This document shows, in pieces, positions 3,068-64,000 of a stretch of 64,000 bases of DNA (positions are counted from its first letter, which is position 1; every line of letters begins with the position of its first letter). The notes under the pieces are model-generated. The model was given only the letters and a program-made list of their open reading frames with translations. It made no database searches and had not been told where the DNA came from. The DNA lies in contig CM120641.1 in NCBI GenBank assembly GCA_051362555.1, positions 11,098,001-11,162,000 of the forward strand, in the 5' to 3' direction. Source of the DNA: Lingula anatina. Taxonomy: Eukaryota > Animalia > Brachiopoda. A program made the position numbers and the translations under genes.

Positions 3068-3128
3068 GCACACTTTATCACACAATGTGCAGCACACTTT
3101 ATCACACAATGTGCAGCACACTTTATCA
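3068..3128. repeat. 24-bp tandem repeat, 2.5 copies (gcacactttatcacacaatgtgca)
   Basis: Exact copies at 3068-3091 and 3092-3115, partial copy 3116-3128. Confidence 0.93.
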
Positions 3129-3161
3129 AAACATTTTGATTAGTTTGAACATGTAATTACA

Positions 3162-3274: not shown

Positions 3275-3396
3275 AATGTGCGCTTTTTACTCCACTTCAC
3301 AAGTTTTCTTCCAACTGTTGTGAAAAATCCAAACATATCTTGTAAATTAGTCATGTGAAGCATAAGCTATCAATACAGTCAACCTCACTGCTCTAT

Positions 3397-3402
3397 TTTA
3401 TT
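3397..3402 (-). promoter_or_regulatory. Candidate intronic polyadenylation signal AATAAA
   Basis: Minus strand reads TGA(3409-3407)-aatt-AATAAA, right after the in-frame read-through stop. It could be chance in an AT-rich intron. Confidence 0.3.
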
Positions 3403-3432
3403 AATTTCAAGGACTGTTCCAATAACACGTAC

Positions 3433-6400
3433 CTGATCCAATAGGGATTCCAATAGACACAGGTGCTTCCAAAAAGTAATCCCCTGCTGTAATTCCAAAT
3501 GGAAACATATTAAAAAATTCAGAAGTTGCAACTTCAGTGGTTAAATTGGATAAAAATGCAACAGTTGTAGTCTCTTGTGCAGTCACACCAGAGGCTTGTG
3601 TTGTAACATCTGCAGCTGCTGTGGTGCTTGCATCAGTAACAGCAGCTGTCTGTGCCTGTGTGGTTACATCAGCAGCAGCAGTAGTCTGGGCTTGAGTTGT
3701 TGCTGCCTGTGAAGTTACATCACCTGCCACAGTTGTAGTCTCTTGTGCAGTCACTCCAGAGGCTTCTGTTGTAACATCTGCAGCTGATGTGGTGCTTGCA
3801 TCAGTAACAGCAGCTGTCTGTGCCTTTGTGGTCACATCGGCAGCAGTAGTAGTCTGGGCTTGAGTTGTTGCTGCCTGTGAAGTTACATCACCTGCGACAG
3901 TTGTAGTCTCTTGTGCAGTCACACCAGAGGCTTGTGTTGTAACATCTGCAGCTGCTGTGGTGATTGCATCAGTAACAGCAACTGACTGTGCCTGTGTGGT
4001 TACATCGGCAGCAGCAGTAGTATGGGCTTGAGATGTTGCTGCCTGTGAAGTTACATCACCTGCGACAGTTGTAGTCTCTTGTGCAGTCATACCAGAGGCT
4101 TGTGTTGTAACATCTGCAGCTGCTGTGGTGCTTGCATCAGTAACAGCAGCTGTCTGTGCCTGTGTGGTTACATCGGCCGCAGCAGTAGTCTGGGCTTGAG
4201 TTGTTGCTGCCTGTGAAGTTACATCACCTGCGACAGTTGAAGTCTCTTGTGCAGTCACACCAGAGGCTTGTGTTGTAACATCTGCAGCTGCTGTGGTGCT
4301 TGCATCAGTAACAGCAGCTGTCTGTGCCTGTGTGGTTACATCGGCAGCAGCAGTAGTCTGGGCTTGAGTTGTTGCTGCCTGTGAAGTTACATCACCTGCG
4401 ACAGTTGTAGTCTCTTGTGCAGTCACACCAGAGGCTTGTGTTGTAACATCTGCAGCTGCTGTGGTGATTACATCAGTAACAGCAGCTGTCTGTGCCTGTG
4501 TGGTTACATCGGCAGCAGCAGTAGTCTGGGCTTGAGTTGTTGCTGCCTGTGAAGTTACATCACCTGCGACAGTTGTAGTCTCTTGTGCAGTCACACCAGA
4601 GGCTTGTGTTGTAACATCTGCAGCTGCTGTGGAGCTAGTATCAGTAACAGCAGCTGTCTGTGCCTGTGTGGTTACATCGGCAGCAGCAGTAGTCTGGGCT
4701 TGAGTTGTTGCTGCCTGTAAAGTTACATCACCTGCGACAGTTGTAGTCTCTTGTGCAGTCACACCAGAGGCTTGTGTTGTAACATCTGCAGCTGCTGTGG
4801 TGCTTGCATCAGTAACAGCAGCTGTCTGTGCCTGTGTGGTTACATCGGCAGCAGCAGTTGTCTGGGCTTGAGTTGTTGCTGCCTGTGAAGTTACATCACC
4901 TGCGACAGTTGTAGTCTCTTGTGCAGTCACACCAGAGGCTTGTGTTGTAACATCTGCAGCTGCTGTGGTGCTTGCATCAGTAACAGCAGCTGTCTGTGCC
5001 TGTGTGGTTACATCAGCAGCAGCAGTAGTCTGGGCTTGAGTTGTTGCTGCCTCTGAAGTTACATCACCTACGACAGTTGTAGTCTCTTGTGCAGTCACAG
5101 CAGAGGCTTGTGTTGTAACATCTGCAGCTGCTGTGGAGCTAGCATCAGTAACAGCAGCTGTCTGTGCCTGTGTGGTTACATCGGCAGCAGCAGCAGTAGT
5201 CTGGGCTTGAGTTGTTGCTGCCTGTGAAGTTACATCACCTGCGACAGTTGTAGTCTCTTGTGCAGTCACACCAGAGGCTTGTGTTGTAACATCTGCAGCT
5301 GCTGTGGTGCTTGCATCAGTAACAGCAGCTGTCTGTGCCTGTGTGGTTACATCGGCAGCAGCAGTTGTCTGGGCTTGAGTTGTTGCTGCCTGTGAAGTTA
5401 CATCACCTGCGACAGTTGTAGTCTCTTGTGCAGTCACACCAGAGGCTTGTGTTGTAACATCTGCAGCTGCTGTGGTGATTACATCAGTAACAGCAGCTGT
5501 CTGTGCCTGTGTGGTTACATCGGCAGCAGCAGTAGTCTGGGCTTGAGTTGTTGCTGCCTGTGAAGTTACATCACCTGCGACAGTTGTAGTCTCTTGTGCA
5601 GTCACACGAGAGGCTTGTGTTGTAACATCTGCAGCTGCTGTGGTGCTTGCATCAGTAACAGCAGCTGTCTGTGCATGTGTGGTTACATCGGCAGCAGCAG
5701 TAGTCTGGGCTTGAGTTGTTGCTGCCTGTGAAGTTACATCACCTGCGACAGTTGTAGTCTCTTGTGCAGTCACACCAGAGGCTTGTGTTGTAAGATCTGC
5801 AGCTGCTGTGGTGCTTGCATCAGTAACAGCAGCTGTCTGTGCCTGTGTGGTTACATCAGCAGCAGCAGTAGTCTGGGCTTCATTTGTTGCTGCCTGTGAA
5901 GTTACATCACCTGCGACAGTTGTAGTCTCTTGTGCAGTCACACCAGAGGCTTGTGTTGTAACATCTGCAGCTGCTGTGGAGCTAGTATCAGTAACAGCAG
6001 CTGTCTGTGCCTGTGTGGTTACATCGGCAGCAGCAGTAGTCTGGGCTTGAGTTGTTGCTGCCTGTGAAGTTACATCACCTGCGACAGTTGTAGTCTCTTG
6101 TGCAGTCACAGCAGAGGCTTGTGTTGTAACATCTGCAGCTGCTGTGGGGCTAGCATCAGTAACAGCAGCTGTCTGTGCCTGTGTGGTTACATCGGCAGCA
6201 GCAGTTGTCTGGGCTTGAGTTGTTGCTGCCTGTGAAGTTACATCACCTGCGACAGTTGTAGTCTCTTGTGCAGTCACACCAGAGGCTTGTGTTGTAACAT
6301 CTGCAGCTGCTGTGGTGCTTGCATCAGTAACAGCAGCTGTCTGTGCATGTGTGGTTACATCGGCAGCAGCAGTAGTCTGGGCTTGAGTTGTTGCTGCCTG

Positions 6401-24400: not shown

Positions 24401-27400
24401 ATCACCTGCGACAGTTGTAGTCTCTTGTGCAGTCACACCAGAGGCTTGTGTTGTAACATCTGCAGCTGCTGTGGTGCTTGCATCAGTAACAACGGCTGTC
24501 TGTGCCTGTGTGGTTACATCGGCTGCAGCAGTAGTCTGGGCTTCAGTTGTTGCTGCCTGTGAAGTTACATCACCTGCGACAGTTGTAGTCTCTTGTGCAG
24601 TCACACCAGAGGCTTGTGTTGTAACATCTGCAGCTGCTGTGGTGCTTGCATCAGTAACAGCAGCTGTCTGTGCCAGTGTGGTTACATCGGCAGCAGCAGT
24701 AGTCTGGGCTTGAGTTGTTGCTGCCTGTGAAGTTACATCACCTGCGACAGTTGTAGTCTCTTGTGCAGTCACACCAGAGGCTTGTGTTGTAACATCGGCA
24801 GCAGCAGTAGTCTGGGCTTGAGTTGTTGCTGCCTGTGAAGTTACATCACCTGCGACAGTTGTAGTCTCTTGTGCAGTCACACCAGAGGCTGGTGTTGTAA
24901 CATCTGCAGCTGCTGTGGTGCTTGCATCAGTAACAGCAGCTGTCTGTGCCTGTGTGGTTACATCGGCAGCAGCAGTAGTCTGGGCTTCATTTGTTGCTGC
25001 CTGTGAAGTTACATCACCTGCGACAGTTGAAGTCTCTTGTGCAGTCACACCAGAGGCTTGTGTTGTAACATCTACAGCTGCTGTGGTGCTTGCATCAGTA
25101 ACTGCAGCTGTCTGTGCCTGTGTGGTTACATCGGCAGCAGCAGTAGTCTGGGCTTGAGTTGTTGCTGCCTGTGAAGTTACATCACCTGCGACAGTTGAAG
25201 TCTCTTGTGCAGTCACACCAGAGGCTTGTGTTGTAACATCTGCAGCTGCTGTGGTGCTTGCATCAGTAACAGGAGCTGTCTGTGCCTGTGTGGTTACATC
25301 GGCAGCAGCAGTAGTCTGGGCTTGAGTTGTTGCTGCCTGTGAAGTTACATCACCTGCGACAGTTGTAGTCTCTTGTGCAGTCACACCAGAGGCTTGTGTT
25401 GTAACATCTGCAGCTGCTGTGGTGCTTGCATCAGTAACAGCAGCTGTCTGTGCCTGTGTGGTTACATCGGCAGCAGCAGTAGTCTGGGCTTCAGTTGTTG
25501 CTGCCTGTGAAGTTACATCACCTGCGACAGTTGTAGTCTCTTGTGCAGTCACACCAGAGGCTTGTGTTGTAACATCTGCAGCTGCTGTGGTGCTTGCATC
25601 AGTAACAACGGCTGTCTGTACCTGTGTGGTAACATCGGCAGCAGCAGTAGTCTGGGCTTGAGTTGTTGCTGCCTGTGAAGTTACATCACCTGCGACAGTT
25701 GTAGTCTCTTGTGCAGTCACACCAGAGGCTTGTGTTGTAACATCTGCAGCTGCTGTGGTGCTTGCATCAGTAACAGCAGCTGTCTGTGCCTGTGTGGTTA
25801 CATCGGCAGCAGCAGTAGTCTGGGCTTGAGTTGTTGCTGCCTGTGAAGTTACATCACCTGCGACAGTTGTAGTCTCTTGTGCAGTCACACCAGAGGCTTG
25901 TGTTGTAACATCGGCAGCAGCAGTAGTCTGGGCTTGAGTTGTTGCTGCCTGTGAAGTTACATCACCTGCGACAGTTGTAGTCTCTTTTGCAGTTACACCA
26001 GAGGCTTGTGTTGTAACATCTGCAGCTGCTGTGGTGCTTGCATCAGTAACAGCAGCTGTCTGTGCCTGTGTGGTTACATCGGCAGCAGCAGTAGTCTGGG
26101 CTTGAGATGTTGGTGCCTGTGAAGTTACATCACCTGCCACAGTTGTAGTCTCTTGTGCAGTCACACCAGAGGATTGTGTTGTAACATCTGCAGCTGCTGT
26201 GGTGCTTGCATCAGTAACAGCAGCTGTCTGTGCCTGTGTGGTTACATCGGCAGCAGCAGTAGTCTGGGCTTGAGTTGTTGCTGCCTGTGAAGTTACATCA
26301 CCTGCGACAGTTGTAGTCTCTTGTGCAGTTACACCAGAGGCTTGTGTTGTAACATCTGCAGCTGCTGTGGTGCTTGCATCAGTAAGAGCAGCTGTCTGTG
26401 CCTGTGTGGTTACATCGGCAGCAGCAGTAGTCTGGGCTTGAGATGTTGGTGCCTGTGAAGTTACATCACCTGCGACAGTTGTAGTCTCTTGTGCAGTCAC
26501 ACCAGAGGCTTGTGTTGTAACATCTGCAGCTGCTGTGGTGCTTGCATCAGCAACAATGGCTGTCTGTGCCTGTGTGGTTACATCGGCTGCAACAGTAGTC
26601 TTGGCTTGAGTTGTTGCTGCCTGTGAAGTTACATCACCTGCGACAGTTGTAGTCTCTTGTGCAGTCACACCAGAGGCTTGTGTTGTAACATCTGCAGCTG
26701 CTGTGGTGCTTGCATCAGTAACAGCAGCTGTCTGTGCCTGTGTGGTTACATCGGCAGTAGCAGTAGTCTGGGCTTGAGTTGTTGCTGCCTGAGAAATTAC
26801 ATCACCTGCGACAGTTGAAGTCTCTTGTGCAGTCACACCAGAGGCTTGTGTTGTAACATCTGCAGCTGCTGTGGTGCTTGCATCAGTAACAGGAGCTGTC
26901 TGTGCCTGTGTGGTTACATCGGCAGCAGCAGTAGTCTGGGCTTGAGTTGTTGCTGCCTGTGAAGTTACATCACCTGCGACAGTTGTAGTCTCTTGTGCAG
27001 TCACACCAGAGGCTTGTGTTGTAACATCTGCAGCTGCTGTGGTGCTTGCATCAGTAACAGCAGCTGTCTGTGCCTGTGTGGTTACATCGGCAGCAGCAGT
27101 AGTCTGGGCTTCAGTTGTTGCTGCCTGTGAAGTTACATCACCTGCGACAGTTGTAGTCTCTTGTGCAGTCACACCAGAGGCTTGTGTTGTAACATCTGCA
27201 GCTGCTGTGGTGCTTGCATCAGTAACAACGGCTGTCTGTGCCTGTGTGGTAACATCGGCAGCAGCAGTAGGCTGGGCTTGAGTTGTTGCTGCCTGTGAAG
27301 TTACATCACCTGCGACAGTTGTAGTCTCTTGTGCAGTCACACCAGAGGCTTGTGTTGTAACATCTGCAGCTGCTGTGGTGCTTGCATCAGTAACAGCAGC

Positions 27401-30400
27401 TGTCTGTGCCTGTGTGGTTACATCGGCAGCAGCAGTAGTCTGGGCTTGAGTTGTTGCTGCCTGTGAAGTTACATCACCTGCGACAGTTGTAGTCTCTTGT
27501 GCAGTCACACCAGAGGCTTGTGTTGTAACATCGGCAGCAGCAGTAGTCTGGGCTTGAGTTGTTGCTGCCTGTGAAGTTACATCACCTGCGACAGTTGTAG
27601 TCTCTTGTGCAGTCACACCAGAGGCTGGTGTTGTAACATCTGCAGCTGCTGTGGTGCTTGCATCAGTAACAGCAGCTGTCTGTGCCTGTGTGGTTACATC
27701 GGCAGCAGCAGTAGTCTGGGCTTGAGTTGTTGCTGCCTGTAAAGTTACATCACCTGCGACAGTTGAAGTCTCTTGTGCAGTCACACCAGAGGCTTGTGTT
27801 GTAACATCTGCAGCTGCTGTGGTGCTTGCATCAGTAACAGCAGCTGTCTGTGCCTGTGTGGTTACATCGGCAGCAGCAGTAGTCTGGGCTTGAGTTGTTG
27901 CTGCCTGTGAAGTTACATCACCTGCGACAGTTGTAGTCTCTTGTGCAGTCACACCAGAGGCTGGTGTTGTAACATCTGCAGCTGCTGTGGTGCTTGCATC
28001 AGTAACAGCAGCTGTCTGTGCCTGTGTGGTTACATCGGCAGCAGCAGTAGTCTGGGCGTCATTTGTTGCTGCCTGTGAAGTTACATCACCTGCGACAGTT
28101 GAAGTCTCTTGTGCAGTCACACCAGAGGCTTGTGTTGTAACATCTACAGCTGCTGTGGTGCTTGCATCAGTAACTGCAGCTGTCTGTGCCTGTGTGGTTA
28201 CATCGGCAGCAGCAGTAGTCTGGGCTTGAGTTGTTGCTGCCTGTGAAGTTACATCACCTGCGACAGTTGAAGTCTCTTGTGCAGTCACACCAGAGGCTTG
28301 TGTTGTAACATCTGCAGCTGCTGTGGTGCTTGCATCAGTAACAGCAGCTGTCTGTGCCTGTGTGGTTACATCAGCAGCAGCAGTAGTCTGGGCTTCAGTT
28401 GTTGCTGCCTGTGAAGTTACATCACCTGCGACAGTTGTAGTCTCTTGTGCAGTCACACCAGAGGCTTGTGTTGTAACATCTGCAGCTGCTGTGGTGCTTG
28501 CATCAGTAACAGCAGCTGTCTGTGCCTGTGTGGTTACATCGGCAGCAGCAGTAGTCTGGGCTTGAGTTGTTGCTGCCTGTAAAGTTACATCACCTGCGAC
28601 AGTTGAAGTCTCTTGTGCAGTCACACCAGAGGCTTGTGTTGTAACTTCTGCAGCTGCTGTGGTGCTTGCATCAGTAACAGCAGCTGTCTGTGCCTGTGTG
28701 GTTACATCGGCAGCAGCAGTAGTCTGGGCTTCAGTTGTTGCTGCCTGTGAAGTTACATCACCTGCGACAGTTGTAGTCTCTTGTGCAGTCACACCAGAGG
28801 CTTGTGTTGTAACATCTGCAACTGCTGTGGTGCTTGCATCAGTAACAGCAGCTGTCTGTGCCTGTGTGGTTACATCAGCAGCAGCAGTAGTCTGGGCTTG
28901 AGTTGTTGCTGCCTGTGAAGTTACATCACCTGCGACAGTTGTAGTCTCTTGTGCAGTCACACCAGAGGCTTGTGTTGTAACATCTGCAGCTGCTGTGGTG
29001 CTTGCATCAGTAACAGCAGCTGTCTGTGCCTGTGTGGTTACATCGGCAGCAACAGTAGTCTGGGCTTGAGTTGTTGCTGCCTGTGAAGTTACATCACCTG
29101 CGACAGTTGTAGTCTCTTGTGCAGTCACACCAGAGGCTTGTGTTGTAACATCTGCAGCTGCTGTGGTGCTTGCATCAGTAACAGCAGCTGTCTGTGCCTG
29201 TGTGGTTACATCGGCAGCAGCAGTAGTCTGGGCTTGAGTTGTTGCTGCCTGTGAAGTAACATCACCTGCGACAGTTGTAGTCTCTTGTGCAGTCACACCA
29301 GAGGCTTGTGTTGTAACATCTGCAGCTGCTGTGGTGCTTGCATCAGTAACAGCAGCTGTCTGTGCCTGTGTTGTTACATTAGCAGCAGCAGTAGTCTGGG
29401 CTTCAGTTGTTGCTGCCTGTGAAGTTACATCACCTGCGACAGTTGTAGTCTCTTGTGCAGTCACACCAGAGGCTTGTGTTGTAACATCTGCAGCTGCTGT
29501 GGTGCTTGCATCAGTAACAACGGCTGTCTGTGCCTGTGTGGTAACATCGGCAGCAGCAGTAGTCTGGGCTTGAGTTGTTGCTGCCTGTGAAGTTACATCA
29601 CCTGCGACAGTTGTAGTCTCTTGTGCAGTCACACCAGAGGCTTGTGTTGTAACATCTGCAGCTGCTGTGGTGCTTGCATCAGTAACAGCAGCTGTCTGTG
29701 CCTGTGTGGTTACATCGGCAGCAGCAGTAGTCTGGGCTTGAGTTGTTGCTGCCTGTGAAGTAACATCACCTGCGACAGTTGTAGTCTCTTGTGCAGTCAC
29801 ACCAGAGGCTTGTGTTGTAACATCGGCAGCAGCAGTAGTCTGGGCTTGAGTTGTTGCTGCCTGTGAAGTTACATCACCTGCGACAGTTGTAGTCTCTTGT
29901 GCAGTCACACCAGAGGCTGGTGTTGTAACATCTGCAGCTGCTGTGGTGCTTGCATCAGTAACAGCAGCTGTCTGTGCCTGTGTGGTTACATCGGCAGCAG
30001 CAGTAGTCTGGGCGTCATTTGTTGCTGCCTGTGAAGTTACATCACCTGCGACAGTTGAAGTCTCTTGTGCAGTCACACCAGAGGCTTGTGTTGTAACATC
30101 TACAGCTGCTGTGGTGCTTGCATCAGTAACTGCAGCTGTCTGTGCCTGTGTGGTTACATCGGCAGCAGCAGTAGTCTGGGCTTGAGTTGTTGCTGCCTGT
30201 GAAGTTACATCACCTGCGACAGTTGAAGTCTCTTGTGCAGTCACACCAGAGGCTTGTGTTGTAACATCTGCAGCTGCTGTGGTGCTTGCATCAGTAACAG
30301 CAGCTGTCTGTGCCTGTGTGGTTACATCAGCAGCAGCAGTAGTCTGGGCTTCAGTTGTTGCTGCCTGTGAAGTTACATCACCTGCGACAGTTGTAGTCTC

Positions 30401-36400: not shown

Positions 36401-39400
36401 CTGTGAAGTAACATCACCTGCGACAGTTGTAGTCTCTTGTGCAGTCACACCAGAGGCTTGTGTTGTAACATCGGCAGCAGCAGTAGTCTGGGCTTGAGTT
36501 GTTGCTGCCTGTGAAGTTACATCACCTGCGACAGTTGTAGTCTCTTGTGCAGTCACACCAGAGGCTGGTGTTGTAACATCTGCAGCTGCTGTGGTGCTTG
36601 CATCAGTAACAGCAGCTGTCTGTGCCTGTGTGGTTACATCGGCAGCAGCAGTAGTCTGGGCGTCATTTGTTGCTGCCTGTGAAGTTACATCACCTGCGAC
36701 AGTTGAAGTCTCTTGTGCAGTCACACCAGAGGCTTGTGTTGTAACATCTACAGCTGCTGTGGTGCTTGCATCAGTAACTGCAGCTGTCTGTGCCTGTGTG
36801 GTTACATCGGCAGCAGCAGTAGTCTGGGCTTGAGTTGTTGCTGCCTGTGAAGTTACATCACCTGCGACAGTTGAAGTCTCTTGTGCAGTCACACCAGAGG
36901 CTTGTGTTGTAACATCTGCAGCTGCTGTGGTGCTTGCATCAGTAACAGCAGCTGTCTGTGCCTGTGTGGTTACATCAGCAGCAGCAGTAGTCTGGGCTTC
37001 AGTTGTTGCTGCCTGTGAAGTTACATCACCTGCGACAGTTGTAGTCTCTTGTGCAGTCACACCAGAGGCTTGTGTTGTAACATCTGCAGCTGCTGTGGTG
37101 CTTGCATCAGTAACAGCAGCTGTCTGTGCCTGTGTGGTTACATCGGCAGCAGCAGTAGTCTGGGCTTGAGTTGTTGCTGCCTGTAAAGTTACATCACCTG
37201 CGACAGTTGAAGTCTCTTGTGCAGTCACACCAGAGGCTTGTGTTGTAACATCTGCAGCTGCTGTGGTGCTTGCATCAGTAACAGCAGCTGTCTGTGCCTG
37301 TGTGGTTACATCGGCAGCAGCAGTAGTCTGGGCTTCAGTTGTTGCTGCCTGTGAAGTTACATCACCTGCGACAGTTGTAGTCTCTTGTGCAGTCACACCA
37401 GAGGCTTGTGTTGTAACATCTGCAACTGCTGTGGTGCTTGCATCAGTAACAGCAGCTGTCTGTGCCTGTGTGGTTACATCAGCAGCAGCAGTAGTCTGGG
37501 CTTGAGTTGTTGCTGCCTGTGAAGTTACATCACCTGCGACAGTTGTAGTCTCTTGTGCAGTCACACCAGAGGCTTGTGTTGTAACATCTGCAGCTGCTGT
37601 GGTGCTTGCATCAGTAACAGCAGCTGTCTGTGCCTGTGTGGTTACATCGGCAGCAACAGTAGTCTGGGCTTGAGTTGTTGCTGCCTGTGAAGTTACATCA
37701 CCTGCGACAGTTGTAGTCTCTTGTGCAGTCACACCAGAGGCTTGTGTTGTAACATCTGCAGCTGCTGTGGTGCTTGCATCAGTAACAGCAGCTGTCTGTG
37801 CCTGTGTGGTTACATCGGCAGCAGCAGTAGTCTGGGCTTGAGTTGTTGCTGCCTGTGAAGTAACATCACCTGCGACAGTTGTAGTCTCTTGTGCAGTCAC
37901 ACCAGAGGCTTGTGTTGTAACATCTGCAGCTGCTGTGGTGCTTGCATCAGTAACAGCAGCTGTCTGTGCCTGTGTTGTTACATTAGCAGCAGCAGTAGTC
38001 TGGGCTTCAGTTGTTGCTGCCTGTGAAGTTACATCACCTGCGACAGTTGTAGTCTCTTGTGCAGTCACACCAGAGGCTTGTGTTGTAACATCTGCAGCTG
38101 CTGTGGTGCTTGCATCAGTAACAGCAGCTGTCTGTGCCTGTGTGGTTACATCGGCAGCAGCAGTAGTCTGGGCTTGAGTTGTTGCTGCCTGTGAAGTTAC
38201 ATCACCTGCGACGGTTGAAGTCTCTTGTGCAGTCACACCAGAGACTTGTGTTGTAACATCTGCAGCTGCTGTGGTGCTTGCATCAGTAACAGCAGCTGTC
38301 TGTGCCTGTGTGGTTACATCAGCAGCAGCAGTAGTCTGGGCTTGAGTTGTTGCTGGCTGTGAAGTTACATCACCTGCGACAGTTGTAGTCTCTTGTGCAG
38401 TCACACCAGAGGCTTGTGTTGTAACATCTGCAGCTGCTGTGGTGCTTGCATCAGTAACAGCAGCTGTCTGTGCCTGTGTGGTTACATCGGCAGCAACAGT
38501 AGTCTGGGCTTGAGTTGTTGCTGCCTGTGAAGTTACATCACCTGCGACAGTTGTAGTCTCTTGTGCAGTCACACCAGAGGCTTGTGTTGTAACATCTGCA
38601 GCTGCTGTGGTGCTTGCATCAGTAACAGCAGCTGTCTGTGCCTGTGTGGTTACAACGGCAGCAGCAGTAGTCTGGGCTTGAGTTGTTGCTGCCTGTGAAG
38701 TTACATCACCTGCGACAGTTGTAGTCTCTTGTGCAGTCACACCAGAGGCTTGTGTTGTAACATCTGCAGCTGCTGTGGTGCTTGCATCAGTAACAGCAGC
38801 TGGCTGTGCCTGTGTGGTTACATCGGCAGCAGCAGTAGTCTGGGCTTGAGTTGTTGCTACCTGTGAAGTTACATCACCTGCGACAGTTGTAGTCTCTTGT
38901 GCAGTCACACCAGAGGCTTGTGTTGTAACATCTGCAGCTGCTGTGGTGCTTGCATCAGTAACAGCAGCTGTCTGTGCCTGTGTTGTTACATCAGCAGCAG
39001 CAGTAGTCTGGGCTTCAGTTGTTGCTGCCTGTGAAGTTACATCACCTGCGACAGTTGTAGTCTCTTGTGCAGTCACACCAGAGGCTGGTGTTGTAACATC
39101 TGCAGCTGCTGTGGTGCTTGCATCAGTAACAGCAGCTGTCTGTGCCTGTGTGGTAACATCGGCAGCAGCAGTAGTCTGGGCTTGAGTTGTTGCTGCCTGT
39201 GAAGTTACATCACCTGCGACAGTTGAAGTCTCTTGTGCAGTCACACCAGAGACTTGTGTTGTAACATCTGCAGCTGCTGTGGTGCTTGCATCAGTAACAG
39301 CAGCTGTCTGTGCCTGTGTGGTTACATCGGCAGCAGCAGTAGTCTGGGCTTGAGTTGTTGCTGCCTGTGAAGTTACATCACCTGCGACAGTTGAAGTCTC

Positions 39401-42400
39401 TTGTGCAGTCACACCAGAGACTTGTGTTGTAACATCTGCAGCTGCTGTGGTGCTTGCATCAGTAACAGCAGCTGTCTGTGCCTGTGTGGTTACATCGGCA
39501 GCAACAGTAGTCTGGGCTTGAGTTGTTGCTGCCTGTGAAATTACATCACCTGCGACAGTTGTAGTCTCTTGTGCAGTCACACCAGAGGCTTGTGTTGTAA
39601 CATCTGCAGCTGCTGTGGTGCTTGCATCAGTAACAGCAGCTGTCTGTGCCTGTGTGGTTACATCGGCAGCAACAGTAGTCTGGGCTTGAGTTGTTGCTGC
39701 CTGTGAAGTTACATCACCTGCGACAGTTGTAGTCTCTTGTGCAGTTACACCAGAGGCTTGTGTTGTAACATCTGCAGCTGCTTTGGTGCTTGCATCAGTA
39801 ACAGTAGCTGTCTGTGCCTGTGTGGTTACAACGGCAGCAGCAGTAGTCTGGGCTTGAGTTGTTGCTGCCTGTGAAGTTACATCACCTGCGACAGTTGTAG
39901 TCTCTTGTGCAGTCACACCAGAGGCTTGTGTTGTAACATCTGCAGCTGCTGTGGTGCTTGCATCAGTAACAGCAGCTGGCTGTGCCTGTGTGGTTACATC
40001 GGCAGCAGCAGTAGTCTGGGCTTGAGTTGTTGCTACCTGTGAAGTTACATCACCTGCGACAGTTGTAGTCTCTTGTGCAGTCACACCAGAGGCTTGTGTT
40101 GTAACATCTGCAGCTGCTGTGGTGCTTGCATCAGTAACAGCAGCTGTCTGTGCCTGTGTGGTTACATCGGCAGCAGCAGTAGTCTGGGCTTGAGTTGTTG
40201 CTGCCTGTGAAGTTACATCACCTGCGACAGTTGTAGTCTCTTGTGCAGTCACACCAGAGGCTTGTGTTGTAACATCTGCAGCTGCTGTGGTGCTTGCATC
40301 AGTAACAGCAGCTGTCTGTGCCTGTGTGGTTACATCGGCAGCAGCAGTAGTCTGGGCTTGAGTTGTTGCTGCCTGTGAAGTTACATCACCTGCGACAGTT
40401 GTAGTCTCTTGTGCAGTCACACCAGAGGCTGGTGTTGTAACATCTGCAGCTGCTGTGGTGCTTGCATCAGTAACAGCAGCTGTCTGTGCCTGTGTGGTTA
40501 CATCGGCAGCAGCAGTAGTCTGGGCGTCATTTGTTGCTGCCTGTGAAGTTACATCACCTGCGACAGTTGTAGTCTCTTGTGCAGTCACACCAGAGGCTTG
40601 TGTTGTAACATCTGCAGCTGCTGTGGTGCTTGCATCAGTAACAACGGCTGTCTGTGCCTGTGTGGTTACATCGGCTGCAGCAGTAGTCTGGGCTTGAGTT
40701 GTTGCTGCCTGTGAAGTTACATCACCTGCGACAGTTGTAGTCTCTTGTGCAGTCACACCAGAGGCTTGTGTTGTAACATCTGCAGCTGCTGTGGTGCTTG
40801 CATCAGTAACAGCAGCTGTCTGTGCCTGTGTGGTTACATCGGCTGCATCAGTAGTCTGGGCTTGAGTTGTTGCTGCCTGTGAAGTTACATCACCTGCGAC
40901 AGTTGTAGTCTCTTGTGCAGTCACACCAGAGGCTTGTGTTGTAACATCTGCAGCTGCTGTGGTGCTTGCATCAGTAACAACGGCTGTCTGTGCCTGTGTG
41001 GTTACATCGGCTGCAGCATTAGTCTGGGCTTGAGTTGTTGCTGCCTGTGAAGTTACATCACCTGCGACAGTTGTAGTCTCTTGTGCAGTCACACCAGAGG
41101 CTTGTGTTGTAACATCTGCAGCTGCTGTGGTGCTTGCATCAGTAACAGCAGCTGTCTGTGCCTGTGTGGTTACATCAGCAGCAGCAGTAGTCTGGGCTTG
41201 AGTTGTTGCTGCCTGTGAAGTTACATCACCTGCGACAGTTGTAGTCTCTTGTGCAGTCACACCAGAGGCTTGTGTTGTAACATCGGCAGCTGCTGTGGTG
41301 CTTGCATCAGTAACAGCAGCTGTCTGTGCCTGTGTGGTTACATCGGAAGCAGCAGTAGTCTGGGCTTCAGTTGTTGCTGCCTGTGAAGTTACATCACCTG
41401 CGACAGTTGTAGTCTCTTGTGCAGTCACACCAGAGGCTTGTGTTGTAACATCTGTAGCTGCTGTGGTGCTTGCATCAGTAACAGTAGCTGTCTGTGCCTG
41501 TGTGGTTACATCGGCAGCAGCAGTAGTCTGGGCTTGAGTTGTTGCTGCCTGTGAAGTTACATCACCTGCGACAGTTGTAGTCTCTTTTGCAGTTACACCA
41601 GAGGCTTGTGTTGTAACATCTGCAGCTGCTGTGGTGCTTGCATCAGTAACAGCAGCTGTCTGTGCCTGTGTGGTTACATCGGCAGCAGCAGTAGTCTGGG
41701 CTTGAGATGTTGGTGTCTGTGAAGTTACATCACCTGCCACAGTTGTAGTCTCTTGTGCAGTCACACCAGAGGATTGTGTTGTAACATCTGCAGCTGCTGT
41801 GGTGCTTGCATCAGTAACAGCAGCTGTCTGTGCCTGTGTGGTTACATCGGCAGCAGCAGTAGTCTGGGCTTGAGTTGTTGCTGCCTGTGAAGTTACATCA
41901 CCTGCGACAGTTGTAGTCTCTTGTGCAGTTACACCAGAGGCTTGTGTTGTAACATCTGCAGCTGCTGTGGTGCTTGCATCAGTAAGAGCAGCTGTCTGTG
42001 CCTGTGTGGTTACATCGGCAGCAGCAGTAGTCTGGGCTTGAGATGTTGGTGCCTGTGAAGTTACATCACCTGCGACAGTTGTAGTCTCTTGTGCAGTCAC
42101 ACCAGAGGCTTGTGTTGTAACATCTGCAGCTGCTGTGGTGCTTGCATCAGCAACAATGGCTGTCTGTGCCTGTGTGGTTACATCGGCTGCAACAGTAGTC
42201 TTGGCTTGAGTTGTTGCTGCCTGTGAAGTTACATCACCTGCGACAGTTGTAGTCTCTTGTGCAGTCACACCAGAGGCTTGTGTTGTAACATCTGCAGCTG
42301 CTGTGGTGCTTGCATCAGTAACAGCAGCTGTCTGTGCCTGTGTGGTTACATCGGCAGTAGCAGTAGTCTGGGCTTGAGTTGTTGCTGCCTGAGAAATTAC

Positions 42401-45400
42401 ATCACCTGCGACAGTTGAAGTCTCTTGTGCAGTCACACCAGAGGCTTGTGTTGTAACATCTGCAGCTGCTGTGGTGCTTGCATCAGTAACAGGAGCTGTC
42501 TGTGCCTGTGTGGTTACATCGGCAGCAGCAGTAGTCTGGGCTTGAGTTGTTGCTGCCTGTGAAGTTACATCACCTGCGACAGTTGTAGTCTCTTGTGCAG
42601 TCACACCAGAGGCTTGTGTTGTAACATCTGCAGCTGCTGTGGTGCTTGCATCAGTAACAGCAGCTGTCTGTGCCTGTGTGGTTACATCGGCAGCAGCAGT
42701 AGTCTGGGCTTGAGTTGTTGCTGCCTGTGAAGTAACATCACCTGCGACAGTTGTAGTCTCTTGTGCAGTCACACCAGAGGCTTGTGTTGTAACATCTGCA
42801 GCTGCTGTGGTGCTTGCATCAGTAACAACGGCTGTCTGTGCCTGTGTGGTAACATCGGCAGCAGCAGTAGGCTGGGCTTGAGTTGTTGCTGCCTGTGAAG
42901 TTACATCACCTGCGACAGTTGTAGTCTCTTGTGCAGTCACACCAGAGGCTTGTGTTGTAACATCTGCAGCTGCTGTGGTGCTTGCATCAGTAACAGCAGC
43001 TGTCTGTGCCTGTGTGGTTACATCGGCAGCAGCAGTAGTCTGGGCTTGAGTTGTTGCTGCCTGTGAAGTTACATCACCTGCGACAGTTGTAGTCTCTTGT
43101 GCAGTCACACCAGAGGCTTGTGTTGTAACATCGGCAGCAGCAGTAGTCTGGGCTTGAGTTGTTGCTGCCTGTGAAGTTACATCACCTGCGACAGTTGTAG
43201 TCTCTTGTGCAGTCACACCAGAGGCTGGTGTTGTAACATCTGCAGCTGCTGTGGTGCTTGCATCAGTAACAGCAGCTGTCTGTGCCTGTGTGGTTACATC
43301 GGCAGCAGCAGTAGTCTGGGCTTGAGTTGTTGCTGCCTGTAAAGTTACATCACCTGCGACAGTTGAAGTCTCTTGTGCAGTCACACCAGAGGCTTGTGTT
43401 GTAACATCTGCAGCTGCTGTGGTGCTTGCATCAGTAACAGCAGCTGTCTGTGCCTGTGTGGTTACATCGGCAGCAGCAGTAGTCTGGGCTTGAGTTGTTG
43501 CTGCCTGTGAAGTTACATCACCTGCGACAGTTGTAGTCTCTTGTGCAGTCACACCAGAGGCTGGTGTTGTAACATCTGCAGCTGCTGTGGTGCTTGCATC
43601 AGTAACAGCAGCTGTCTGTGCCTGTGTGGTTACATCGGCAGCAGCAGTAGTCTGGGCGTCATTTGTTGCTGCCTGTGAAGTTACATCACCTGCGACAGTT
43701 GAAGTCTCTTGTGCAGTCACACCAGAGGCTTGTGTTGTAACATCTACAGCTGCTGTGGTGCTTGCATCAGTAACTGCAGCTGTCTGTGCCTGTGTGGTTA
43801 CATCGGCAGCAGCAGTAGTCTGGGCTTGAGTTGTTGCTGCCTGTGAAGTTACATCACCTGCGACAGTTGAAGTCTCTTGTGCAGTCACACCAGAGGCTTG
43901 TGTTGTAACATCTGCAGCTGCTGTGGTGCTTGCATCAGTAACAGCAGCTGTCTGTGCCTGTGTGGTTACATCAGCAGCAGCAGTAGTCTGGGCTTCAGTT
44001 GTTGCTGCCTGTGAAGTTACATCACCTGCGACAGTTGTAGTCTCTTGTGCAGTCACACCAGAGGCTTGTGTTGTAACATCTGCAGCTGCTGTGGTGCTTG
44101 CATCAGTAACAGCAGCTGTCTGTGCCTGTGTGGTTACATCGGCAGCAGCAGTAGTCTGGGCTTGAGTTGTTGCTGCCTGTAAAGTTACATCACCTGCGAC
44201 AGTTGAAGTCTCTTGTGCAGTCACACCAGAGGCTTGTGTTGTAACTTCTGCAGCTGCTGTGGTGCTTGCATCAGTAACAGCAGCTGTCTGTGCCTGTGTG
44301 GTTACATCGGCAGCAGCAGTAGTCTGGGCTTCAGTTGTTGCTGCCTGTGAAGTTACATCACCTGCGACAGTTGTAGTCTCTTGTGCAGTCACACCAGAGG
44401 CTTGTGTTGTAACATCTGCAACTGCTGTGGTGCTTGCATCAGTAACAGCAGCTGTCTGTGCCTGTGTGGTTACATCAGCAGCAGCAGTAGTCTGGGCTTG
44501 AGTTGTTGCTGCCTGTGAAGTTACATCACCTGCGACAGTTGTAGTCTCTTGTGCAGTCACACCAGAGGCTTGTGTTGTAACATCTGCAGCTGCTGTGGTG
44601 CTTGCATCAGTAACAACGGCTGTCTGTGCCTGTGTGGTAACATCGGCAGCAGCAGTAGGCTGGGCTTGAGTTGTTGCTGCCTGTGAAGTTACATCACCTG
44701 CGACAGTTGTAGTCTCTTGTGCAGTCACACCAGAGGCTTGTGTTGTAACATCTGCAGCTGCTGTGGTGCTTGCATCAGTAACAGCAGCTGTCTGTGCCTG
44801 TGTGGTTACATCGGCAGCAGCAGTAGTCTGGGCTTGAGTTGTTGCTGCCTGTGAAGTTACATCACCTGCGACAGTTGTAGTCTCTTGTGCAGTCACACCA
44901 GAGGCTTGTGTTGTAACATCGGCAGCAGCAGTAGTCTGGGCTTGAGTTGTTGCTGCCTGTGAAGTTACATCACCTGCGACAGTTGTAGTCTCTTGTGCAG
45001 TCACACCAGAGGCTGGTGTTGTAACATCTGCAGCTGCTGTGGTGCTTGCATCAGTAACAGCAGCTGTCTGTGCCTGTGTGGTTACATCGGCAGCAGCAGT
45101 AGTCTGGGCTTGAGTTGTTGCTGCCTGTAAAGTTACATCACCTGCGACAGTTGAAGTCTCTTGTGCAGTCACACCAGAGGCTTGTGTTGTAACATCTGCA
45201 GCTGCTGTGGTGCTTGCATCAGTAACAGCAGCTGTCTGTGCCTGTGTGGTTACATCGGCAGCAGCAGTAGTCTGGGCTTGAGTTGTTGCTGCCTGTGAAG
45301 TTACATCACCTGCGACAGTTGTAGTCTCTTGTGCAGTCACACCAGAGGCTGGTGTTGTAACATCTGCAGCTGCTGTGGTGCTTGCATCAGTAACAGCAGC

Positions 45401-48400
45401 TGTCTGTGCCTGTGTGGTTACATCGGCAGCAGCAGTAGTCTGGGCGTCATTTGTTGCTGCCTGTGAAGTTACATCACCTGCGACAGTTGAAGTCTCTTGT
45501 GCAGTCACACCAGAGGCTTGTGTTGTAACATCTACAGCTGCTGTGGTGCTTGCATCAGTAACTGCAGCTGTCTGTGCCTGTGTGGTTACATCGGCAGCAG
45601 CAGTAGTCTGGGCTTGAGTTGTTGCTGCCTGTGAAGTTACATCACCTGCGACAGTTGAAGTCTCTTGTGCAGTCACACCAGAGGCTTGTGTTGTAACATC
45701 TGCAGCTGCTGTGGTGCTTGCATCAGTAACAGCAGCTGTCTGTGCCTGTGTGGTTACATCAGCAGCAGCAGTAGTCTGGGCTTCAGTTGTTGCTGCCTGT
45801 GAAGTTACATCACCTGCGACAGTTGTAGTCTCTTGTGCAGTCACACCAGAGGCTTGTGTTGTAACATCTGCAGCTGCTGTGGTGCTTGCATCAGTAACAG
45901 CAGCTGTCTGTGCCTGTGTGGTTACATCGGCAGCAGCAGTAGTCTGGGCTTGAGTTGTTGCTGCCTGTAAAGTTACATCACCTGCGACAGTTGAAGTCTC
46001 TTGTGCAGTCACACCAGAGGCTTGTGTTGTAACTTCTGCAGCTGCTGTGGTGCTTGCATCAGTAACAGCAGCTGTCTGTGCCTGTGTGGTTACATCGGCA
46101 GCAGCAGTAGTCTGGGCTTCAGTTGTTGCTGCCTGTGAAGTTACATCACCTGCGACAGTTGTAGTCTCTTGTGCAGTCACACCAGAGGCTTGTGTTGTAA
46201 CATCTGCAACTGCTGTGGTGCTTGCATCAGTAACAGCAGCTGTCTGTGCCTGTGTGGTTACATCAGCAGCAGCAGTAGTCTGGGCTTGAGTTGTTGCTGC
46301 CTGTGAAGTTACATCACCTGCGACAGTTGTAGTCTCTTGTGCAGTCACACCAGAGGCTTGTGTTGTAACATCTGCAGCTGCTGTGGTGCTTGCATCAGTA
46401 ACAGCAGCTGTCTGTGCCTGTGTGGTTACATCGGCAGCAACAGTAGTCTGGGCTTGAGTTGTTGCTGCCTGTGAAGTTACATCACCTGCGACAGTTGTAG
46501 TCTCTTGTGCAGTCACACCAGAGGCTTGTGTTGTAACATCTGCAGCTGCTGTGGTGCTTGCATCAGTAACAGCAGCTGTCTGTGCCTGTGTGGTTACATC
46601 GGCAGCAGCAGTAGTCTGGGCTTGAGTTGTTGCTGCCTGTGAAGTAACATCACCTGCGACAGTTGTAGTCTCTTGTGCAGTCACACCAGAGGCTTGTGTT
46701 GTAACATCTGCAGCTGCTGTGGTGCTTGCATCAGTAACAGCAGCTGTCTGTGCCTGTGTTGTTACATTAGCAGCAGCAGTAGTCTGGGCTTCAGTTGTTG
46801 CTGCCTGTGAAGTTACATCACCTGCGACAGTTGTAGTCTCTTGTGCAGTCACACCAGAGGCTTGTGTTGTAACATCTGCAGCTGCTGTGGTGCTTGCATC
46901 AGTAACAACGGCTGTCTGTGCCTGTGTGGTAACATCGGCAGCAGCAGTAGTCTGGGCTTGAGTTGTTGCTGCCTGTGAAGTTACATCACCTGCGACAGTT
47001 GTAGTCTCTTGTGCAGTCACACCAGAGGCTTGTGTTGTAACATCTGCAGCTGCTGTGGTGCTTGCATCAGTAACAGCAGCTGTCTGTGCCTGTGTGGTTA
47101 CATCGGCAGCAGCAGTAGTCTGGGCTTGAGTTGTTGCTGCCTGTGAAGTAACATCACCTGCGACAGTTGTAGTCTCTTGTGCAGTCACACCAGAGGCTTG
47201 TGTTGTAACATCGGCAGCAGCAGTAGTCTGGGCTTGAGTTGTTGCTGCCTGTGAAGTTACATCACCTGCGACAGTTGTAGTCTCTTGTGCAGTCACACCA
47301 GAGGCTGGTGTTGTAACATCTGCAGCTGCTGTGGTGCTTGCATCAGTAACAGCAGCTGTCTGTGCCTGTGTGGTTACATCGGCAGCAGCAGTAGTCTGGG
47401 CGTCATTTGTTGCTGCCTGTGAAGTTACATCACCTGCGACAGTTGAAGTCTCTTGTGCAGTCACACCAGAGGCTTGTGTTGTAACATCTACAGCTGCTGT
47501 GGTGCTTGCATCAGTAACTGCAGCTGTCTGTGCCTGTGTGGTTACATCGGCAGCAGCAGTAGTCTGGGCTTGAGTTGTTGCTGCCTGTGAAGTTACATCA
47601 CCTGCGACAGTTGAAGTCTCTTGTGCAGTCACACCAGAGGCTTGTGTTGTAACATCTGCAGCTGCTGTGGTGCTTGCATCAGTAACAGCAGCTGTCTGTG
47701 CCTGTGTGGTTACATCAGCAGCAGCAGTAGTCTGGGCTTCAGTTGTTGCTGCCTGTGAAGTTACATCACCTGCGACAGTTGTAGTCTCTTGTGCAGTCAC
47801 ACCAGAGGCTTGTGTTGTAACATCTGCAGCTGCTGTGGTGCTTGCATCAGTAACAGCAGCTGTCTGTGCCTGTGTGGTTACATCGGCAGCAGCAGTAGTC
47901 TGGGCTTGAGTTGTTGCTGCCTGTAAAGTTACATCACCTGCGACAGTTGAAGTCTTTTGTGCAGTCACACCAGAGGCTTGTGTTGTAACATCTGCAGCTG
48001 CTGTGGTGCTTGCATCAGTAACAGCAGCTGTCTGTGCCTGTGTGGTTACATCGGCAGCAGCAGTAGTCTGGGCTTCAGTTGTTGCTGCCTGTGAAGTTAC
48101 ATCACCTGCGACAGTTGTAGTCTCTTGTGCAGTCACACCAGAGGCTTGTGTTGTAACATCTGCAACTGCTGTGGTGCTTGCATCAGTAACAGCAGCTGTC
48201 TGTGCCTGTGTGGTTACATCAGCAGCAGCAGTAGTCTGGGCTTGAGTTGTTGCTGCCTGTGAAGTTACATCACCTGCGACAGTTGTAGTCTCTTGTGCAG
48301 TAACACCAGAGGCTTGTGTTGTAACATCTGCAGCTGCTGTGGTGCTTGCATCAGTAACAGCAGCTGTCTGTGCCTGTGTGGTTACATCGGCAGCAACAGT

Positions 48401-51400
48401 AGTCTGGGCTTGAGTTGTTGCTGCCTGTGAAGTTACATCACCTGCGACAGTTGTAGTCTCTTGTGCAGTCACACCAGAGGCTTGTGTTGTAACATCTGCA
48501 GCTGCTGTGGTGCTTGCATCAGTAACAGCAGCTGTCTGTGCCTGTGTGGTTACATCGGCAGCAGCAGTAGTCTGGGCTTGAGTTGTTGCTGCCTGTGAAG
48601 TAACATCACCTGCGACAGTTGTAGTCTCTTGTGCAGTCACACTAGAGGCTTGTGTTGTAACATCTGCAGCTGCTGTGGTGCTTGCATCAGTAACAGCAGC
48701 TGTCTGTGCCTGTGTTGTTACATTAGCAGCAGCAGTAGTCTGGGCTTCAGTTGTTGCTGCCTGTGAAGTTACATCACCTGCGACAGTTGTAGTCTCTTGT
48801 GCAGTCACACCAGAGGCTTGTGTTGTAACATCTGCAGCTGCTGTGGTGCTTGCATCAGTAACAGCAGCTGTCTGTGCCTGTGTGGTTACATCGGCAGCAG
48901 CAGTAGTCTGGGCTTGAGTTGTTGCTGCCTGTGAAGTTACATCACCTGCGACGGTTGAAGTCTCTTGTGCAGTCACACCAGAGACTTGTGTTGTAACATC
49001 TGCAGCTGCTGTGGTGCTTGCATCAGTAACAGCAGCTGTCTGTGCCTGTGTGGTTACATCAGCAGCAGCAGTAGTCTGGGCTTGAGTTGTTGCTGGCTGT
49101 GAAGTTACATCACCTGCGACAGTTGTAGTCTCTTGTGCAGTCACACCAGAGGCTTGTGTTGTAACATCTGCAGCTGCTGTGGTGCTTGCATCAGTAACAG
49201 CAGCTGTCTGTGCCTGTGTGGTTACATCGGCAGCAACAGTAGTCTGGGCTTGAGTTGTTGCTGCCTGTGAAGTTACATCACCTGCGACAGTTGTAGTCTC
49301 TTGTGCAGTCACACCAGAGGCTTGTGTTGTAACATCTGCAGCTGCTGTGGTGCTTGCATCAGTAACAGCAGCTGTCTGTGCCTGTGTGGTTACAACGGCA
49401 GCAGCAGTAGTCTGGGCTTCAGTTGTTGCTGCCTGTGAAGTTACATCACCTGCGACAGTTGTAGTCTCTTGTGCAGTCACACCAGAGGCTTGTGTTGTAA
49501 CATCTGCAGCTGCTGTGGTGCTTGCATCAGTAACAGCAGCTGGCTGTGCCTGTGTGGTTACATCGGCAGCAGCAGTAGTCTGGGCTTGAGTTGTTGCTAC
49601 CTGTGAAGTTACATCACCTGCGACAGTTGTAGTCTCTTGTGCAGTCACACCAGAGGCTTGTGTTGTAACATCTGCAGCTGCTGTGGTGCTTGCATCAGTA
49701 ACAGCAGCTGTCTGTGCCTGTGTTGTTACATCAGCAGCAGCAGTAGTCTGGGCTTCAGTTGTTGCTGCCTGTGAAGTTACATCACCTGCGACAGTTGTAG
49801 TCTCTTGTGCAGTCACACCAGAGGCTGGTGTTGTAACATCTGCAGCTGCTGTGGTGCTTGCATCAGTAACAGCAGCTGTCTGTGCCTGTGTGGTAACATC
49901 GGCAGCAGCAGTAGTCTGGGCTTGAGTTGTTGCTGCCTGTGAAGTTACATCACCTGCGACAGTTGAAGTCTCTTGTGCAGTCACACCAGAGACTTGTGTT
50001 GTAACATCTGCAGCTGCTGTGGTGCTTGCATCAGTAACAGCAGCTGTCTGTGCCTGTGTGGTTACATCGGCAGCAGCAGTAGTCTGGGCTTGAGTTGTTG
50101 CTGCCTGTGAAGTTACATCACCTGCGACAGTTGAAGTCTCTTGTGCAGTCACACCAGAGACTTGTGTTGTAACATCTGCAGCTGCTGTGGTGCTTGCATC
50201 AGTAACAGCAGCTGTCTGTGCCTGTGTGGTTACATCGGCAGCAACAGTAGTCTGGGCTTGAGTTGTTGCTGCCTGTGAAATTACATCACCTGCGACAGTT
50301 GTAGTCTCTTGTGCAGTCACACCAGAGGCTTGTGTTGTAACATCTGCAGCTGCTGTGGTGCTTGCATCAGTAACAGCAGCTGTCTGTGCCTGTGTGGTTA
50401 CATCGGCAGCAACAGTAGTCTGGGCTTGAGTTGTTGCTGCCTGTGAAGTTACATCACCTGCGACAGTTGTAGTCTCTTGTGCAGTTACACCAGAGGCTTG
50501 TGTTGTAACATCTGCAGCTGCTTTGGTGCTTGCATCAGTAACAGTAGCTGTCTGTGCCTGTGTGGTTACAACGGCAGCAGCAGTAGTCTGGGCTTGAGTT
50601 GTTGCTGCCTGTGAAGTTACATCACCTGCGACAGTTGTAGTCTCTTGTGCAGTCACACCAGAGGCTTGTGTTGTAACATCTGCAGCTGCTGTGGTGCTTG
50701 CATCAGTAACAGCAGCTGGCTGTGCCTGTGTGGTTACATCGGCAGCAGCAGTAGTCTGGGCTTGAGTTGTTGCTACCTGTGAAGTTACATCACCTGCGAC
50801 AGTTGTAGTCTCTTGTGCAGTCACACCAGAGGCTTGTGTTGTAACATCTGCAGCTGCTGTGGTGCTTGCATCAGTAACAGCAGCTGTCTGTGCCTGTGTG
50901 GTTACATCGGCAGCAGCAGTAGTCTGGGCTTGAGTTGTTGCTGCCTGTGAATTTACATCACCTGCGACAGTTGTAGTCTCTTGTGCAGTCACACCAGAGG
51001 CTTGTGTTGTAACATCTGCAGCTGCTGTGGTGCTTGCATCAGTAACAGCAGCTGTCTGTGCCTGTGTGGTTACATCGGCAGCAGCAGTAGTCTGGGCTTG
51101 AGTTGTTGCTGCCTGTGAAGTTACATCACCTGCGACAGTTGTAGTCTCTTGTGCAGTCACACCAGAGGCTGGTGTTGTAACATCTGCAGCTGCTGTGGTG
51201 CTTGCATCAGTAACAGCAGCTGTCTGTGCCTGTGTGGTTACATCGGCAGCAGCAGTAGTCTGGGCGTCATTTGTTGCTGCCTGTGAAGTTACATCACCTG
51301 CGACAGTTGAAGTCTCTTGTGCAGTCACACCAGAGGCTTGTGTTGTAACATCTACAGCTGCTGTGGTGCTTGCATCAGTAACTGCAGCTGTCTGTGCCTG

Positions 51401-63400: not shown

Positions 63401-64000
63401 CTGTGTGGTTATATCGGCAGCAGCAGTAGTCTGGGCTTGAGTTGTTGCTGCCTGAGAAATTACATCACCTGTGACAGTTGAAGTCTCTTGTGCAGTCACA
63501 CCAGAGGCTTGTGTTGTAACATCTGCAGCTGCTGTGGTGCTTGCATCAGTAACAGGAGCTGTCTGTGCCTGTGTGGTTACATCGGCAGCAGCAGTAGTCT
63601 GGGCTTGAGTTGTTGCTGCCTGTGAAGTTACATCACCTGCGACAGTTGTAGTTTCTTGTGCAGTTACACCAGAGGCTTGTGTTGTAACATCTGCAGCTGC
63701 TGTGGTGCTTGCATCAGTAACAGCAGCTGTCTGTGCCTGTGTGGTTACATCGGCAGCAGCAGTAGTCTGGGCTTCAGTTGTTGCTGCCTGTGAAGTTACA
63801 TCACCTGCGACAGTTGTAGTCTCTTGTGCAGTCACACCAGAGGCTTGTGTTGTAACATCTGCAGCTGCTGTGGTGCTTGCATCAGTAACAACGGCTGTCT
63901 GTGCCTGTGTGGTAACATCGGCAGCAGCAGTAGTCTGGGCTTGAGTTGTTGCTGCCTGTGAAGTTACATCACCTGTGACAGTTGTAGTCTCTTGTGCAGT
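3433..64000 (-). CDS. Giant coding exon (5' end outside window): mucin-like Thr/Ala-rich tandem-repeat domain (>=20,189 codons) plus linker and start of the NIDO region of a MUC4-like mucin
   Basis: One reading frame is open from the window edge (64000) to 3410; the track's start at 63835 is just an internal GTG (Val). Consensus unit QETTTVAGDVTSQAATTQAQTTAAADVTTQAQTAAVTDASTTAAADVTTQASGVTA. Unique tail FLSNLTTEVATSEFFNMFPFGITAGDYFLEAPVSIGIPIGSG ends at a strong donor CAG|GTACGT (3433/3432, phase 1). FPFG-x3-GD-x2-L matches the segment preceding NIDO in nidogen (LFPFG..GD..L) and MUC4 (LFPYG..GD). Confidence 0.88.
3557..64000 (-). repeat. Coding tandem array of 168-bp units (~368 units including ~23 shortened 108-bp units)
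   Basis: Periodicity is directly visible (e.g. gaagttacatcacctgcgacagttgtagtctcttgtgcagtcacaccagaggc recurs every 168 bp). Units usually differ by 0-4 substitutions. Unit count estimated from array length corrected for the deletions seen. Confidence 0.97.

Follow-up and report, generated by a model that had tools for sequence, protein, structure and literature searches.

A tandem repeat array of at least 60.4 kb in the brachiopod Lingula anatina is a coding sequence maintained by selection and belongs to a NIDO-bearing mucin-type gene. The array lies on the minus strand of the window analyzed here, a stretch of 64,000 nucleotides (assembly GCA_051362555.1, contig CM120641.1, positions 11,098,001 to 11,162,000; coordinates below are those of the window), and it is probably the one repeat-bearing exon of a mucin gene of the MUC4 style, retained in full in the main isoform. 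Two features go beyond chance: new stop codons are absent from the repeat variants, and the array is linked in frame to exons matching NIDO. Gross assembly error does not account for the array, and DNA from other individuals contains its unit in hundreds of copies. Its status as one exon in the mRNA is predicted from DNA.

The giant frame and selection on its readability

Six-frame translation demonstrated that minus-strand frame 0 is free of stops over 20,197 codons, between the window edge (64000) and the TGA at 3409-3407. The array is open in this frame alone, the longest stop-free run in the other frames being 504 bp. Position 3433 is the final exon base ahead of a CAG/GTACGT donor, and the span from there to the window edge is 60,568 bp; the 5′ end of the exon lies beyond the window, and this length is a minimum value. 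These results confirm the preliminary description of this DNA, which had reported an unbroken frame of more than 60.5 kb without stop or frameshift, open at the edge, and had placed its boundary correctly at 3433; the indels in the array are all in frame. The GC content is flat at 51% in every 2-kb bin of 4001-64000, compared with 34-36% in 1-4000. The predicted features are as follows.

3433..64000, minus strand: predicted giant coding exon, from the open frame and the donor at 3433; at least 60,568 bp, 20,189 codons
3557..64000, minus strand: tandem array; 368 units, 128 distinct sequences, mostly 168 bp (56 amino acids)
3433..3556, minus strand: unique 124-bp tail of the giant exon with the first NIDO motif (FPFG..GD), from blastp of the spliced model; no Pfam hit alone
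1659..3432, minus strand: predicted GT-AG intron, 1,774 bp, phase 1, 32% GC, from the splice-site model
1591..1658, minus strand: predicted 68-bp exon with a PFPFQG motif, N-terminal part of NIDO; aligns to NIDO proteins, no Pfam hit alone
1155..1315, minus strand: predicted 161-bp exon, NIDO profile 5-51 (PF06119, E = 0.0024, under the curated cut-off)
601..754, minus strand: predicted 154-bp exon, NIDO profile 56-97 (PF06119, E = 0.0017, under the curated cut-off)
1..152, minus strand: predicted exon of at least 152 bp, NIDO profile 100-153, leaving the window (PF06119, E = 2.9e-7, 31.1 bits, cut-off 25)

The interval 3557-64000 is made up entirely of 368 units plus, at the window edge, a 27-bp partial unit. 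The units measure 168 bp (340 copies), 108 bp (23), 165 bp (three), 147 bp and 171 bp (one each), every size being a multiple of three, and they diverge from the majority sequence by a mean of 2.6 bases (339 full-length units scored). Across the exon, the composition is 30% Thr, 27% Ala, 12% Gln, and 11% Val, with Ser and Thr together accounting for 35.4% of 20,189 amino acids. The encoded polypeptide is acidic (1,845 Asp and Glu residues vs 30 Lys and Arg) and poor in Pro, which occurs 89 times in 20,189 residues (0.4%) and not at all in the consensus unit. Its mass before glycosylation is 1.92 MDa, a lower bound.

The predicted splicing joins the giant frame to four small NIDO-matching exons and preserves the reading frame. 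The five-exon model reads 20,367 amino acids without a stop across four GT-AG introns of 1,774, 275, 400, and 448 bp (24-32% GC), and the 68-bp exon bridges the phase-1 donor and the phase-0 acceptor so that the frame is recovered. PF06119 was matched by three consecutive exons in profile order, one of the three above the curated cut-off. Both Pfam and blastp of the spliced model placed the NIDO domain directly C-terminal to the repeat, and the FPFG..GD motif of the tail aligned to the start of the NIDO domain in fish and ray proteins.

When the spliced C-terminal 219 amino acids were aligned to NIDO domains in named proteins of fish, frog, and ray, identity was 31-35% and the alignment started at FPFG..GD. 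A HMMER search with the last exon returned 14 matches, and 9 of the 13 scanned against Pfam carry NIDO; the four without it (Ig-like, ankyrin, DUF) were dismissed as chance. MUC4 was not among the 14 matches, 10 of which were looked up by name. Word-seed searches with two NIDO exons and with the last repeats plus tail found no homologue, which is weak evidence, and an atlas search and a PDB sequence search gave zero matches. One protein encountered, P0018 (KAB1717265.1; 182 amino acids, on a 549-bp contig), is labelled Klebsiella pneumoniae and clusters at 90% with cyprinid NIDO proteins; it is probably fish contamination in a bacterial record.

An open unit is by itself unsurprising, as 43% of 2,000 shuffled units were open in some frame. 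The unit variants were therefore tallied as types against the majority codon, not as events. Among the 504 possible single-base changes of the unit, 130 were seen, 100 of them nonsynonymous and 30 synonymous; of the 10 changes leading to a stop, none was present, against 4.4 expected (P = 0.0012, permutation within substitution classes). The commonest change, C>T, occurred at 26 of 42 other sites vs none of the seven Gln codons (P = 0.003). The remaining five frames held 39 new stops vs 40.3 expected. When the array was divided into thirds, the stop deficit gave P values of 0.04, 0.09, and 0.03, which are not independent given the shared variants. Nonsynonymous changes were not depleted (95 vs 93.4 expected, 339 full-length units). 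Since stops are depleted and amino-acid changes are not, selection maintains readability with little concern for residues. The frame-specific stop deficit supports the earlier proposal that the stretch is coding. Amino-acid changes would be near neutral and readability alone selected, as expected of a spacer with putative O-glycosylation.

The same data bear on the reading that this is a non-coding satellite or a silent pseudogene array standing by chance in frame beside NIDO exons. A period of 168 bp is typical of satellites, and both the frequency of open shuffled units and the undepleted amino-acid changes fit such an origin. However, the deficit of stops is confined to the one frame that continues into NIDO, and all four indel classes within the array of the window are in frame. 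We regard this origin as very improbable.

Array architecture and copy number in DNA reads

The array is a mosaic of nested blocks, in which the longest exact repeat is 3,455 bp. Self-comparison of the array identified one region of higher-order structure:

25129..51382, unstranded: three near-identical higher-order blocks

The block at 31777-37930 has 8 differences in 6,153 bp from a copy 6,648 bp lower, and the block at 44421-51382 has 11 differences in 6,961 bp from a copy 10,740 bp lower.

Three of 11 DNA runs (X1, X2, and X3) were mapped as contigs onto 3130-3730, an interval with one unit and the unique flank beside it. Positions 3213 and 3321 distinguish X2 and X3, both generated in other studies, from the window; the X1 flank is identical to the window, and X1 may be the source of the assembly. 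The 108-bp unit (23 copies, 11550-63529) lacks 60 bp between two internal AAADVTTQA-type sub-repeats and was also present in X1 and X2; this loss is a mark of slippage or unequal exchange inside the unit. Unit types of 54, 111, and 150 bp, all in frame, occurred in X2 and X3, with none among the 368 units of the window, and repeat unit types thus differ between individuals. The nested higher-order blocks and these differences suggest that the array may have grown by unequal crossing-over.

Summed contig depth is not a copy number. A lower bound was obtained by dividing the depth by 31, the maximum number of words over any one base, and by the single-copy depth, and the minimum copies per bin were 261-335 in X2, 23-91 in X1, and 23-48 in X3. 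Since X2 comes from another study and another individual, its bound of about 55 kb of repeat does not depend on this assembly; GC bias and copies elsewhere in the genome may affect it, as depth cannot separate one array from several loci. By the read-depth check suggested in the preliminary description, a gross over-expansion is not supported, X2 needing at least 335 copies in its best bin. In X1, one 69-bp contig reads exactly 25,000, compared with 98.2 for the flank. Abundance is described in the Logan paper as capped and halved (10.1101/2024.07.30.605881). The X1 value is probably a ceiling, which would correspond to 255 copies; in the window, the words of that contig occur 228-277 times, 228 being the count of the rarest 31-mer. 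If the remaining array resembles this part, the ceiling would scale to some 410 units or more. In X3, the summed depth was 1,188 times single copy (62 contigs), and simulations of the window array gave 1,198-1,770 for 38-71 unitigs, a crude comparison that holds to an order of magnitude only.

These figures also address the possibility that the assembly lengthened a real array, for example by placing the 6-7 kb blocks of two haplotypes in tandem, in which case the exon would occupy about 47-55 kb of the window. Near-identical blocks of 4.3-7.0 kb with 6-11 differences are what such an error would leave, the removal of two of them would leave about 47 kb, and the X3 summed depth lies at the low end of the simulations. 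By contrast, the longest exact repeat is of a length that long accurate reads span, the X2 bound calls for hundreds of copies, and the X1 ceiling of 255 copies, set against 228 in the window for the rarest 31-mer, points to more units, not fewer. A lengthened array is therefore improbable, if less so than a satellite.

All seven X2 joint rows and the three loose-end skips traced in X1, X2, and X3 imply in-frame units. In X2 and X3, from which 1,165 and 62 contigs were mapped in all, none of the 14 array contigs listed carries a gap. In X1, single-base indels were seen in three of the seven array contigs listed and in both joint rows, at 0.6-1.9 times single-copy depth; if real, they are frameshifts and would favor the satellite origin. 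They amount to 0.2-0.7% of the unit depth, and the two with listed letters double the neighboring base, which suggests recurrent long-read errors.

Further repeats lie in the first intron. A compound microsatellite occupies 2873-2971, with (TA)30.5 followed by (TG)19.5. At 3068-3128 and 3240-3275 lie 2.5 perfect tandem copies of a 24-bp sequence and a short segment shared with other contigs in X1, X2, and X3, the latter probably a dispersed repeat.

Splice signals and RNA reads

The coding strand of the exon lacks GTRAG, AATAAA, and ATTAAA, and none of its AGs is preceded by eight consecutive pyrimidines, which leaves nothing that looks like an intron. A donor-like CAG/GTGATG occurs 366 times among the 368 units, in phase 1 like the real donor, and it lacks the G at +5. 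A splice from a unit to 1658 would keep the frame but drop the first NIDO motif. The invariance of the donor-like site was considered and dismissed: seven adjacent positions of the unit carry no change, and a run of that length is consistent with chance (P = 0.15). Read-through of the donor at 3433 would add eight codons up to the TGA at 3409-3407, and an AATAAA lies four bases beyond on the minus strand (3402-3397); such read-through could end a short repeat-only isoform without the full NIDO domain, and the hexamer, in an intron of 32% GC, may be due to chance.

Six of nine raw-read RNA runs were mapped to 3130-3730, with 6-30% of each run read. X12, X15, and X20 gave no reads, X18 gave 10, and X19 gave three, all on the repeat unit. 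The X18 reads lie in both orientations, and six of them cross the donor-like site unspliced, possibly as genomic carry-over; a carry-over of 1% predicts 7-17 such reads for an assumed genome of 0.4-1 Gb. As carry-over would explain their number, the RNA reads were used neither for nor against expression.

We propose that the exon is probably kept whole: with no good acceptor, for want of a pyrimidine tract, and with a weak donor alone, the first strong donor would be that at 3433. In mammals, RBMX-family proteins are reported to repress cryptic sites in ultra-long exons (PMC11446547), and SAFB is reported to control giant exons (PMC10901741).

An alternative is that the array is real and coding but that most transcripts lose much of it, giving a ladder of shorter isoforms. 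The route would be the weak in-phase donor of nearly every unit, or exon skipping as in MUC4/Y. The donor-like sites would provide such a ladder with abundant material, together with several phase-1 AG sites in the unit; MUC4/Y is described as lacking exon 2 (PMC4902942), and ultra-long exons are described as prone to cryptic splicing (PMC11446547). On the other hand, the site has no G at +5, a pyrimidine tract is absent from all AGs of the array, and splicing to 1658 would delete the first NIDO motif. Moreover, each third of the array is without stops, the site is not significantly invariant, and the six X18 reads pass through it unspliced, although they may be genomic carry-over. Such a ladder seems unlikely, yet it is the foremost alternative to an exon kept whole.

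Several observations weigh against a MUC4-style exon kept whole. Apart from the donor-like site in nearly every unit, the single-base indels of X1, and the 4.3-7.0 kb blocks that differ by just 6-11 bases, the six sparse RNA runs gave zero reads on the unique tail or the 3433 junction, and no junction of the model was seen. No close relative was found in the word-seed, HMMER, atlas, and PDB sequence searches. Pro is nearly absent from the unit, unlike in a classical Pro/Thr/Ser (PTS) domain, which is enriched in it, and the small exons of 68, 161, and 154 bp do not match the 153, 134, 165, 156, and 131 bp of MUC4.

Comparison with MUC4, MUC12, and other giant genes

MUC4 has been described as a tandem-repeat exon 2 followed by NIDO, AMOP, vWD, EGF, and transmembrane (TM) regions (PMC4902942; PMC13345508). 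Like MUC4, the Lingula gene is predicted to have a very large Ser/Thr-rich variable number tandem repeat (VNTR) exon directly upstream of small NIDO exons, and its unit variants differ between individuals. Its predicted exon of at least 60.6 kb is larger than that of MUC4, which measures 19.9 kb in CHM13 and 27,843 bp (27.8 kb) in the longest VNTR allele (PMC13345508), its 168-bp unit is Ala/Gln-rich and proline-poor, and NIDO begins inside the giant exon. The gene works like MUC4 but is not classed as MUC4, given the lack of Pro enrichment and the different exon sizes; the window ends inside NIDO, and any AMOP, vWD, EGF, and TM regions and the signal peptide would lie outside it. Membership in a NIDO-bearing mucin gene, a point absent from the preliminary description, accounts for the form of the exon. 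The predicted product is a bottle-brush glycoprotein with a polypeptide of at least 1.9 MDa, capped by NIDO and by further domains outside the window. According to Lang et al. (2016), no animal branching off more deeply than Xenopus had been found to have a Muc4-like protein (PMC4948705).

The NIDO domains at the identity of 31-35% given above belong to XP_066520069.1 (‘mucin-22-like’), XP_040182910.1 (LOC120916156), and XP_059833768.1 (‘alpha-tectorin-like’). In two of these proteins from fish, frog, and ray, Pro/Thr/Ser-rich blocks separate NIDO domains, the ‘mucin-22-like’ protein having a PTS block among five NIDO domains. Their PTS blocks reach at most about 750 amino acids as annotated, unlike the array described here, and the identity is too low for orthology. 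An identity as alpha-tectorin or nidogen was also considered and rejected, as at least 20,000 amino acids of repeat precede NIDO. The NIDO domain of tectorin sits N-terminally. Tectorin is described as NIDO followed by VWD and ZP, without a giant repeat (PMC4948705).

PKZILLA-1 is a precedent for giant transcripts: its 136-kb mRNA, which has just 17 exons, is produced and translated, and poly-A libraries miss all of it beyond about 10 kb from the 3′ end (10.1101/2024.01.29.577497); a second paper speaks merely of ‘large exons’ (10.1101/2024.03.27.587007). PKZILLA-1 is an algal polyketide synthase and is unrelated in sequence to the present gene.

With regard to exon size, the human baseline of 17-22 kb used in the preliminary description is out of date, whereas its suggestion that this exon is among the largest coding exons described is supported. 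According to a 2026 medRxiv preprint (PMC13345508), the VNTR exon 2 of MUC12 has 32,382 bp in CHM13; the longest MUC12 allele codes for 23,080 amino acids, which corresponds to an exon of about 68 kb by our own subtraction of the other exons from that coding length. In the literature on exon-size records, mostly open papers, none longer than that of MUC12 turned up. The exon of the Lingula gene may exceed 68 kb. It is rather doubtful that it both passes the MUC12 allele, at the 410 or more units indicated by X1, and stays whole in an mRNA of more than 70 kb despite its in-phase donor-like sites. If this were true, it would be longer than any animal coding exon found in the literature searched and would provide a natural test of about 400 identical cryptic donors, which would be either silenced or used to tune mucin length.

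These results add to the evidence that long-read assemblies hide mucin exons several-fold beyond textbook records, and they suggest that genes with a repeat followed by NIDO reach titin-class size. The stop-codon test indicates selection on readability, not on amino-acid sequence, across 60 kb, and identical units with an in-phase weak donor offer a tractable system for the study of ultra-long exon definition. MUC12 is a tethered mucin of the SEA/EGF type and does not carry NIDO, in which it differs from this gene. MUC12 has a single VNTR coding exon, as is predicted for this gene, and the two are of one size class, with MUC12 at 32.4 kb (CHM13) and about 68 kb (longest allele). The size is therefore extreme but not a record, the gene is not new in kind, and nothing is overturned, as the 2026 preprint already documents a comparably large human exon.

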